Source of the DNA: an archaeon
GTDB taxonomy: Archaea > Nanobdellota > Nanobdellia > Pacearchaeales > GW2011-AR1
DNA length: 64,000 bases
Assembly (NCBI GenBank): GCA_024653565.1
Contig: JANLIK010000015.1
Span: 21,289-85,288, forward strand
Reading direction: 5' to 3'
The notes under the pieces were generated by a model. It was not told where the DNA came from, made no database searches, and saw only the letters and a list, made by a program, of their open reading frames with translations. Each line of letters starts with the position of its first letter. Positions within the stretch are counted from its first letter, which is position 1. The translations under genes were made by a program, and so were the position numbers. Positions 30,365 to 31,366 of the stretch are shown in pieces.

Positions 30365-30499
30365 CTCTAACCCACCACACCTTCCAAGGTGCGCCTGGTT
30401 CTAAGCCCAGGAACTTGCATGGTGCAAGAAGTCAAGCGAGAAAACACTCGTTGTGTAATCTCGTGGGAAGAGAGTAAGCTCATGCTCGCAAGAGCGGAA
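30365..30499 (+). promoter_or_regulatory. 135-nt leader/promoter element, copy 1 (133 of 135 nt identical to 31232..31366). It ends in the SD AGCGGAAGGAAGAAT
   Basis: Direct repeat seen in the sequence. Contains the palindrome CTTGCAtggTGCAAG. Confidence 0.6.
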
Positions 30500-30510
30500 G
30501 GAAGAATCCC

Positions 30511-31137
30511 GTGAAGCGCATCCTGTTCGCACTGGCCCTCATCGCCAGCCTGACCCTCACCGGGTGCATGACCGATCGCCACCAGAACTGCGACCGCCAC
30601 GCTCTCGACCGGCCGACCACGACCCTGACAGTCGTTCCGGCCCCGACCCCTGTTGTTCCGGCTCCGGTGCCCGCCCCCAGGCCGGCCCCGGTCGTCTACA
30701 CTTCCTCCCTCCCCACCTCGGGAGAGTGGACCCTCGACGGATGGAACGTGGGAGCCATCCGGATCATCAAGGGCAAGGAACTCCCAGTCAACATCTGGTT
30801 CGAGGCCTACGACGCGAGCGAGCAGCGAATCCGCTGCGAACAGCAAGTCGACAAGGCCACCGCAGAGAACCTGTGCAACCTGTTCCGGAACGGCTGTCCG
30901 CTGTGGCTGGAGTTCACGACGAAGGACGCCAAGTTCCTCCGGCGAGGAGACGACAACATGACCATCTGGACGACGGACTTCGAGTTCGCCAAGATGGAGA
31001 AGGTGGACCCCCGCGGAGAGGACCCAAAGGGAGCCCAGCCCATCCAGCGGACCCCTGCCGGAGTCGGTCAGGCACCCGCGGCCACCCCTCCCGGGAAGAC
31101 ACCCGCAGGTATCGCCGCCCCAGTCAAGAACCCGTAG
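30511..31137 (+). CDS. Bacterial-type lipoprotein with a Pro-rich linker. GTG start
   Basis: Signal peptide with lipobox LTLTG-C, Pro/Ala-rich segment, G+C-rich codon usage, and a strong SD upstream. Confidence 0.6.
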   Translation: MKRILFALALIASLTLTGCMTDRHQNCDRHALDRPTTTLTVVPAPTPVVPAPVPAPRPAPVVYTSSLPTSGEWTLDGWNVGAIRIIKGKELPVNIWFEAYDASEQRIRCEQQVDKATAENLCNLFRNGCPLWLEFTTKDAKFLRRGDDNMTIWTTDFEFAKMEKVDPRGEDPKGAQPIQRTPAGVGQAPAATPPGKTPAGIAAPVKNP

Positions 31138-31160
31138 CTTCGGCGACGGCGTGCACCAAT

Positions 31161-31230
31161 GGGCCCGGTGCTATACAAATAGGGCCCATCATTTCTACAA
31201 CCAAGCTCTTCGGCCGGAGGGACGAAGAGC
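31161..31230 (+). terminator. Conserved post-gene element, copy 1 of 2: GGGCCCGGTGCTATACAAATAGGG ... GCTCTTCG-loop-CGAAGAGC hairpin
   Basis: Copy 2 at 34346..34417. An 8-bp GC-rich stem seen in the sequence, but with no trailing T-tract. Confidence 0.45.
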
Positions 31231-31231
31231 G

Positions 31232-31366
31232 CTCTAACCCACCACACCTTCCAAGGTGCGCCTGGTTCTAAGCCCAGGAACTTGCATGGTGCAAGAAGTC
31301 AAGCGAGAAAACACTCATTGTGTAATCTCGTGGGAAGAGAGTAGGCTCATGCTCGCAAGAGCGGAA
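31232..31366 (+). promoter_or_regulatory. 135-nt leader/promoter element, copy 2, immediately upstream of the MVP-like gene
   Basis: 133 of 135 nt identical to 30365..30499. Confidence 0.6.

Follow-up and report, generated by a model that had tools for sequence, protein, structure and literature searches.

A 140-nt structured sequence, probably a shared leader, in front of a lipoprotein gene and a vault protein-like gene in a foreign island of a Nanoarchaeota genome

The described systems closest to the element reported here are bacterial 5' leaders led by a Shine-Dalgarno (SD) sequence, RNA thermometers and SD-masking riboswitch platforms, intergenic repeats of the REP, BIME and ERIC kinds, the attC sites of integrons, and vault RNA. 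Most archaeal integrons are attC clusters that lack an integrase (CALINs); they are known from Nanoarchaeota, and bacterial cassettes can be part of them (PMC9668308). A preprint of 2019 on homologues of the major vault protein (MVP) in bacteria reported none in archaea (10.1101/872010). We analysed a 64-kb stretch of DNA (the window) from the AT-rich genome of a member of the Nanoarchaeota (DPANN), contig JANLIK010000015.1, in which a 140-nt element, hereafter R, occurs twice, once ahead of a lipoprotein gene and once ahead of an MVP-like gene. We consider it probable that R is a shared cis-regulatory leader, that is, a recently duplicated promoter or leader in the 5' untranslated region (UTR).

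Extent and predicted fold of the duplicated leader

In a repeat search of the window, R emerged as two direct copies of 140 nt, 98% identical, on the + strand. Copy 1 (30365-30504) is the leader of the lipoprotein gene and copy 2 (31232-31371) that of the MVP-like gene. The first-pass annotation of this DNA had described near-identical leaders of 135 nt with two differences, which is right for that range; base-by-base alignment extends the repeat to 140 nt and places the three mismatches at 30450 (G in copy 1, A in copy 2), 30477 (A/G) and 30500 (G/A), the last of which falls outside the shorter range. A 64-nt piece of R is present exactly twice in the window, against 0.00 occurrences expected from 100 shuffles. 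The homology has a sharp onset at CTCTAACC and trails off 7 nt ahead of the start codons, GTG 30511 and ATG 31378. Both starts had been called correctly, and they stand in the same register, each 146 nt from the start of R. The palindrome CTTGCAtggTGCAAG (30414-30428 and 31281-31295), already noticed in both copies, is indeed there, and a scan of the window found exact copies of it within R and nowhere else; the same holds for CACCTTccAAGGTG. Matches to either motif with two mismatches do occur outside R, few in number and at the level of shuffled sequence.

Each copy of R carries a purine-rich SD at -15 to -7 relative to the start codon. For the lipoprotein gene it reads GGAAGGAAG (30496-30504, + strand) and is part of a 16-nt block, AGCGGAAGGAAGAATC; for the MVP-like gene it reads GGAAAGAAG (31363-31371, + strand) and is followed by the spacer TTAGACA, so that each leader ends in an SD, as had been proposed. 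R thus qualifies as a bacterial SD-led initiation region, with complementarity judged against the general anti-SD consensus, the window holding no 16S sequence. The ribosome binding site (RBS) is the certain functional content of R.

RNA folding, which had been suggested as a check on the leaders, gave both copies essentially the same architecture and a better fold than shuffled sequence (z = -2.1 and -3.0 for the two copies, against dinucleotide shuffles). The core of R is a closed domain of 108 nt with four hairpins (30365-30472 in copy 1, 31232-31339 in copy 2, + strand), which appears in folds of RNA as well as of single-stranded DNA (ssDNA). In copy 1 of the RNA fold the closing stem pairs CUCU..CCCAC (30365-68, 30371-75) with GUGGG.AGAG (30463-67, 30469-72) and encloses hairpins H1 (30378-30391, CACCUU/AAGGUG), H2 (30394-30411, CCUGG/CCAGG), H3 (30414-30428, CUUGCA/UGCAAG) and H4 (30438-30462, GAGA..ACAC/GUGU..UCUC). 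In both copies the four hairpins are closed off by this stem or by a version of it in a shifted register, and the minimum free energy structure of copy 2 additionally pairs both ends of the leader. Just 5' of the SD the + strand folds into a further hairpin with a GNRA cap, GCUC-GCAA-GAGC (30480-30498 in copy 1, 31347-31365 in copy 2). Watson-Crick pairs make up 39 of the 40 modelled pairs in the core and the GNRA hairpin, the single U-G lying in the latter, and all three mismatches between the copies fall at unpaired positions (p ~0.08). Among the stem-forming segments singled out by the first-pass annotation, the general expectation of folding beyond shuffles held, and the particular stem cgagaaaacactcg did not, since the G/A difference at 30450 breaks it in copy 2; the helix of H4 is intact in both copies.

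We examined the ssDNA folds as well, and these gave z values of -2.95 to -4.18 over both strands. To serve as operators, the four inverted repeats, which differ from one another and lie within 100 bp, would require as many distinct dimeric DNA-binding proteins, and a structure formed by a single strand, presumably of RNA, is therefore the more economical reading.

A riboregulator or a thermosensor-like leader had also been considered for these sequences. Rfam 15, which covers riboswitches, leaders, thermometers, small RNAs, vault RNA and Y RNA, has no family that matches R at the gathering score, and at E<=10 the sole match to R is 14-bit noise on the opposite strand; a riboregulator of a known family drops out accordingly. 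Partition-function folding between 15 and 65 C gave no support to a thermosensor or to masking of the SD by R. Over this whole range the core folds alone, as an independent domain, and the initiation region of the MVP-like gene stays open, with unpaired probabilities of 0.73-0.87 (SD) and 0.88-0.93 (AUG). The SD of the lipoprotein gene is partly paired, with its own coding sequence and not with R. The CCUUCC of H1 is complementary to the GGAAGG of the SD (-9.0 kcal/mol in copy 1, -3.0 kcal/mol in copy 2), a pairing that is not favoured in the ensemble.

R fronts two unrelated genes, keeps its RBS in the same register before both and folds beyond shuffles, and for these reasons a shared leader is the most economical explanation. 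The earlier proposal of a shared promoter or operator, or of a structured 5' UTR, thus keeps its core, a common upstream region with the RBS in register, and loses the thermosensor.

A GC-rich island with re-used intergenic modules

Both copies of R belong to an island of ~7 kb, from ~30365 to ~37230, with a guanine-plus-cytosine (GC) content of ~62% (0.59-0.66) against 34% for the host genome. The GC content at third codon positions (GC3) is 0.80-0.89 in the island genes and 0.30-0.32 in the host genes. In the GC profile, the 5' end of R copy 1 coincides with the onset of the rise, that is, with the left edge of the island. The host part of the window encodes archaeal-type PheRS alpha and beta, LeuRS, AlaRS, TFE-alpha, a family-B DNA polymerase and FEN1, and the island proteins match NCBI records labelled archaeon or Nanoarchaeota (locus tags NUV97_01150 to 01175), which place them in a metagenome-assembled genome, on a contig of 369,652 bp.

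Island and host genes also begin differently. Host genes have a TATA box (tttataaa, ctataaaa or catataaat) ~25-32 nt before the ATG and mostly lack an SD, which makes them leaderless in type; the island genes, conversely, have long leaders, no TATA box and a purine-rich SD. One purine-rich RBS block, in the form GGAAGGAAG, GGAAAGAAG or GAGGAAGGAAA, is common to all four island genes, at a distance from the start codon of 6 nt in genes 1 and 2, 8 nt in gene 3 and 4 nt in gene 4. The 16-nt block AGCGGAAGGAAGAATC at the end of R copy 1 recurs with 16 of 16 matches ahead of gene 4 (36051-36066), and the spacer TTAGACA before the ATG of the MVP-like gene recurs before that of gene 3. R is thus part of an expression format that is bacterial in style and alien to the host in which it now resides. 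We also noticed two adjacent host open reading frames (ORFs) without Pfam match, possibly paralogues (26370-27206 and 27369-28220; 278 and 283 aa), whose upstream regions of ~45 nt are nearly identical, TATA box included; duplicated upstream regions are therefore found in the host sequence as well.

The intergenic DNA of the island is built from further repeats. Sensitive self-comparison detected a module A of ~92 nt on the + strand, placed after gene 1 (31144-31233) and after gene 2 (34329-34420), with 84% identity over 93 aligned positions. It consists of two hairpins: GGGCCC..GGGCCC, with the AT-rich loop TATACAAATA, and then GCTCTTCG..CGAAGAGC. R copy 2 begins 1 nt past the last hairpin of module A copy 1. 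A shorter module B of ~52 nt, with the G/C hairpin CCCCTCCCCCC..GGGGGGCGGGG, follows gene 3 (35805-35856) and gene 4 (37165-37215) on the + strand, its copies being 88% identical. Neither module has a U-tract. Module A, with its conserved AT-rich box TATACAAATA, could be a terminator or a stabiliser, or could contain an archaeal-type TATA box. In sum, the intergenic DNA of the island is assembled from re-used modules, namely R twice, A twice, B twice and the RBS block four times. The leader pair is not an isolated feature, and a foreign, bacterial-style island built from modules is the context, missed by the first-pass annotation, that best explains the duplication of R. The R core shows no significant resemblance to the gene 3 and gene 4 leaders, to the DNA upstream of R copy 1 or to a second GC-rich patch of the window described below, and a GGAAC motif shared among the island leaders is not significant. 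Having no counterpart in the leaders of genes 3 and 4, the core is specific to the pair of the lipoprotein and MVP-like genes.

All genes of the island are on the + strand. Gene 1 (30511-31137; NUV97_01150) encodes a 208-aa lipoprotein that has a signal peptide with the lipobox LTGC; it is an orphan, for which even an exhaustive HMMER search found no relatives. Gene 2 (31378-34317; NUV97_01155) encodes the MVP-like protein of 979 aa, with the Pfam domains MVP_shoulder and Vault_3. Its identity to relatives is at most 44%, its named best matches are in Myxococcota, Gemmatimonadota, Planctomycetota and Riflebacteria, and a search of viral contigs for MVP relatives found none. The protein is ~130-150 aa longer than its bacterial relatives, and its gene contains in-frame tandem repeats, an 18-nt G/Q-rich unit three times and a perfect 33-nt unit twice (31909-31969 and 33847-33912). 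Gene 3 (34515-35795; SD GAGGAAGGAAA at 34496-34506) encodes an M29 aminopeptidase with at most 46% identity to any public protein. The longest ORF at this gene starts with GTG at 34443, and the 426-aa protein of NCBI starts with ATG at 34515, behind an SD of the island type, which makes this shorter version the preferable call. Gene 4 (36067-37158; NUV97_01165; SD GGAAGGAAG at 36054-36062) encodes a 363-aa Cys-rich protein with internal repeats. It shows an internal duplication with a period of ~300 nt (36475-36617 against 36781-36923, 78%; 36387-36435 against 36687-36735, 76%), with repeated CxxC-type motifs (36387-36923), and in Pfam the gene gave only a weak RING-finger match. Two short hydrophobic ORFs of the island are unannotated, each with an SD-like purine run ahead of it: one of 31 aa (35884-35979) and one of 45 aa (37242-37379), the latter a membrane peptide with the island-type SD AAGGAAAG and possibly a fifth gene. 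Neither PADLOC nor NCBIfam gave a match among the island proteins.

In two related Nanoarchaeota genomes the divergent pair of FEN1 and family-B DNA polymerase genes is kept, the region is uniformly AT-rich and the GC-rich block is absent. Gene order on the FEN1 side is not conserved in these relatives, and the exact junctions of the island are for this reason undefinable. A search of the island ends for att-like direct repeats and for terminal inverted repeats found none beyond chance; a 22-nt inverted match (30338-30359 with 38077-38098, 86%) was dismissed at E = 0.2. Pfam scans of the ORFs of at least 150 aa in the 64 kb yielded no integrase, tyrosine recombinase or other recombinase. The contrast in GC and GC3, the style of the SD, the distance of the proteins, none of which exceeds 46% identity to a public sequence, and the lack of the block in relatives together mark the island as an import that is specific to this lineage and came from a GC-rich donor not yet sampled. 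It is laterally acquired, bacterial in style and foreign to this Nanoarchaeota genome.

Shared control or by-product of recombination

A shared leader would have arisen as follows. A block of ~140 bp, comprising the four-hairpin domain, the GNRA-capped hairpin and the purine-rich SD, would be re-used as a 5' expression leader; recombination within the island or within the donor, or a recent duplication, would have set it in the same register before the lipoprotein and the MVP-like genes, and the same kind of re-use would account for the RBS block and for both hairpin modules. The two genes would thereby receive the same translation-initiation region, and whatever R contains upstream of it, be it a promoter or operator or a regulatory or stabilising RNA, would pass the same control to both. 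A role of the R core as a 5' stabiliser, a regulatory RNA or a promoter/operator region is plausible. That R is transcribed, that it acts beyond the RBS and that it co-regulates both genes are inferences.

Several observations weigh against this reading. A sigma-70 scan (-35 and -10 hexamers with a spacing of 16-18 nt) found no promoter on the + strand within R. By eye, R offers the weak candidates TTGTGT-18-TAAGCT and GGAACTT-15-TCAAG (30410-30436), of which the second resembles promoters of the ECF-sigma kind. R contains no host-type TATA box either. Such a box, tttataaata, lies on the + strand at 30069-30079, ~30 nt before an ATG at 30100 and ~290 nt upstream of R copy 1, and points into the island. 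From there no run of five or more T is met on the + strand until 37271. Transcription may therefore read through from the host TATA box, in which case both copies of R would be internal, SD-bearing initiation regions of one long transcript, and donor-type regulation may be irrelevant in this genome. In addition, both strands of R fold equally well, and folding does not separate a role as RNA from palindromes at the DNA level. Just two near-identical copies are known and yield no covariation or selection signal, and their 98% identity could reflect recency. Finally, the functional link between the lipoprotein and the MVP-like protein is putative; no lipoprotein-like neighbour stands beside the bacterial MVP homologues that we examined. 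As to the host TATA box itself, the ATG at 30100 opens an unannotated ORF of 67 aa (30100-30303), and the region 30100-30364 has an intermediate GC content of 40-43%.

Relatives of R were sought in several ways. Pattern scans of genome, metagenome and viral contig collections, for which three separate segments of R and both modules served as queries, returned zero further copies of R, A or B. A blastn comparison of the whole island with plasmids and phages gave as its sole match a 130-nt coding stretch of the M29 gene. A covariance model of R, run with filters off over the window and four fetched loci, found just the two known copies, with a score of 187 bits for copy 2 and a next score of 9 bits. 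At three bacterial MVP loci neither a lipoprotein gene nor an M29 gene is a neighbour, and an R-like leader is likewise missing.

The rival that survives best, which we judge unlikely though worth taking seriously, is that R is a neutral recombination scar, left by segmental duplication or by Campbell-type insertion of the lipoprotein cassette within R, its core hairpins having no function beyond the RBS. The direct succession of R, gene 1 and module A by R, gene 2 and module A fits this origin, and so does the absence of homologues from the collections searched, which gives no sign of long-term conservation. The identity of 98% in R, compared with 84-88% in modules A and B, likewise suggests a more recent duplication of R; it would equally follow from a stronger constraint on R, and two copies do not distinguish between the two. 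On this reading the 140-nt direct repeats would leave the 867-bp lipoprotein unit prone to deletion. What argues for a functional leader over a scar is that R forms a compact, closed domain that folds significantly better than shuffles, that all three substitutions avoid paired positions, and that the duplication kept the register of the start codon exactly.

It is improbable that R is a dispersed intergenic repeat of the donor genome, of the REP, ERIC or MITE kind, two copies of which came to lie in the island by chance. Its length of ~140 nt, its multiple hairpins, its intergenic position and its 39 of 40 Watson-Crick pairs would be typical of such a repeat, and modules A and B resemble hairpins of the REP type. 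Against it, both copies include the RBS and stand in the same register with a start codon. Short terminal inverted repeats are present in copy 2 only, at chance frequency, target-site duplications are lacking, and a third copy was found neither in the 64-kb window nor in the genome, metagenome, viral, plasmid and phage collections.

Another reading, very unlikely in our judgement, takes R to encode a leader peptide (31 aa in copy 1, 29 aa in copy 2) whose translation is coupled to that of the gene behind it. An ATG at 30419 and 31286, at the edge of the H3 loop, does have AGGAA 6 nt upstream, and in copy 1 the stop codon TGA overlaps the GTG of the lipoprotein gene (GTGA), and its counterpart in copy 2 falls a little ahead of the ATG of the MVP-like gene. 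The GC3 of these ORFs (0.52 and 0.48) is ~5 standard deviations below the 0.85 +/- 0.06 expected from the island genes, the substitutions between the copies are all non-synonymous, the C-termini differ and no run of regulatory codons is present. On GC3 and substitutions we judge the ORF unlikely to be coding.

An integron origin, with R as an attC-like cassette boundary of the CALIN type, is highly improbable. Foreign ORFs of the same orientation are separated by similar structured repeats here, as in such arrays, and the ends of copy 2 pair as TCTAAC...GTTAGA. Strict RYYYAAC...GTTRRRY pairs number 0 in the window, the relaxed pair occurs three times, which is the chance level, with two of these in host sequence, and copy 1 has no R' box. 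As ssDNA the bottom strand forms a closed four-hairpin junction instead of one bulged hairpin and shows no L-box-like complementarity near its ends. R is absent after genes 2, 3 and 4, lies 5' of its genes and holds their SD. No integrase was found by Pfam among the ORFs of at least 150 aa in the 64 kb, IntI not being obligatory for CALINs. We rejected R as an attC site on its boxes, its fold, its position and its occurrence in two copies only.

An assembly artefact, by which the tandem arrangement or the whole island would have been mis-joined around the 140-nt repeat, is extremely unlikely: a repeat of about short-read length and a sharp change in GC are typical places of mis-assembly, but the same AT-rich genome flanks the island on both sides, five retrieved protein records of the island region are each found on two contigs (three of them with two NCBI accessions), and the copies of R differ at three positions and are thus not one collapsed sequence.

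Implications and comparison with known systems

Should R function as a shared leader, it would mark the lipoprotein and MVP-like genes as co-expressed, which would give the prokaryotic vault-like proteins their first candidate partner. The island would then also show how a foreign, SD-dependent gene set of bacterial style is organised in an archaeon with leaderless mRNAs. One may go further and suppose that the 108-nt core is a new cis-acting RNA domain dedicated to this gene pair, which might bind a ligand or a protein or, by analogy with vault RNA, interact with the vault-like shell; it would have arrived with a bacterial-type vault-like cassette, and the units of leader, ORF and hairpin would represent a cross-domain expression format. 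We think this extension quite improbable.

A duplicated leader in two copies is by itself a frequent by-product of recombination, and its general interest is limited. More unusual than R, arguably, are the entire island and a second GC-rich patch of the window (45.8-47.1 kb). This patch (45780-47120, ~1.35 kb) has ~55-60% GC in a genome of 34% GC and lies between a gene for a PUA-domain protein and a methionine-aminopeptidase-like gene; two related loci have no GC-rich block. On neither strand does an ORF of the patch exceed 110 aa; codon periodicity is absent, Rfam gave no match, and the sequence has no similarity to R or module A. Its 3' half (46560-47120) folds with z = -5.6 against shuffles and forms long perfect helices, such as 46710-46726 with 46771-46787, and its 5' half gives z = -1.6. 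The patch may represent a structured RNA of large size or non-coding DNA of foreign origin. Elsewhere in the window, genes for a C-5 cytosine DNA methylase, a protein with a PD-(D/E)XK nuclease domain and a Fic/DOC-domain protein stand close together (54066-56511) and may form a restriction-modification or defence-like cluster.

Set against the described systems, R shares with integron attC sites, VCR-type arrays and archaeal CALINs the arrangement of near-identical structured repeats of ~60-140 nt between unrelated foreign ORFs of the same orientation, and with the CALINs also the setting, a Nanoarchaeota genome with bacterial-type genes. It differs from attC sites in having neither R''/R' nor L''/L' boxes, in its branched fold and in its 5' position, which includes the RBS. 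Like REP, BIME and ERIC repeats, R is short, GC-richer than its surroundings, hairpin-forming and intergenic, a description that fits modules A and B especially; unlike them, it is not one overall palindrome, is held in a fixed register to the start codon and is not dispersed in the available sequence. The vault RNA of eukaryotic vaults (RF00006) offers an analogy only, a structured element of ~100 nt beside an MVP-like gene; R differs in matching no Rfam family, in being fused to an RBS and in standing ahead of a lipoprotein gene as well. RNA thermometers (ROSE, fourU) and SD-masking riboswitch platforms are, like R, structured leaders that end at the SD, and the CCUUCC of H1 is of the anti-SD type; R differs from these in leaving the SD and AUG of gene 2 open and in a core that folds independently of the RBS. 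In relation to the SD-led 5' leaders of bacteria, R is set apart by its place in an archaeon whose genes are of the leaderless type with a TATA box at about -30, and by having no relatives. In its build it resembles them: the SD lies 7-15 nt before the start codon with stable hairpins upstream, hairpin-rich elements follow the genes, and the same block stands before two genes.

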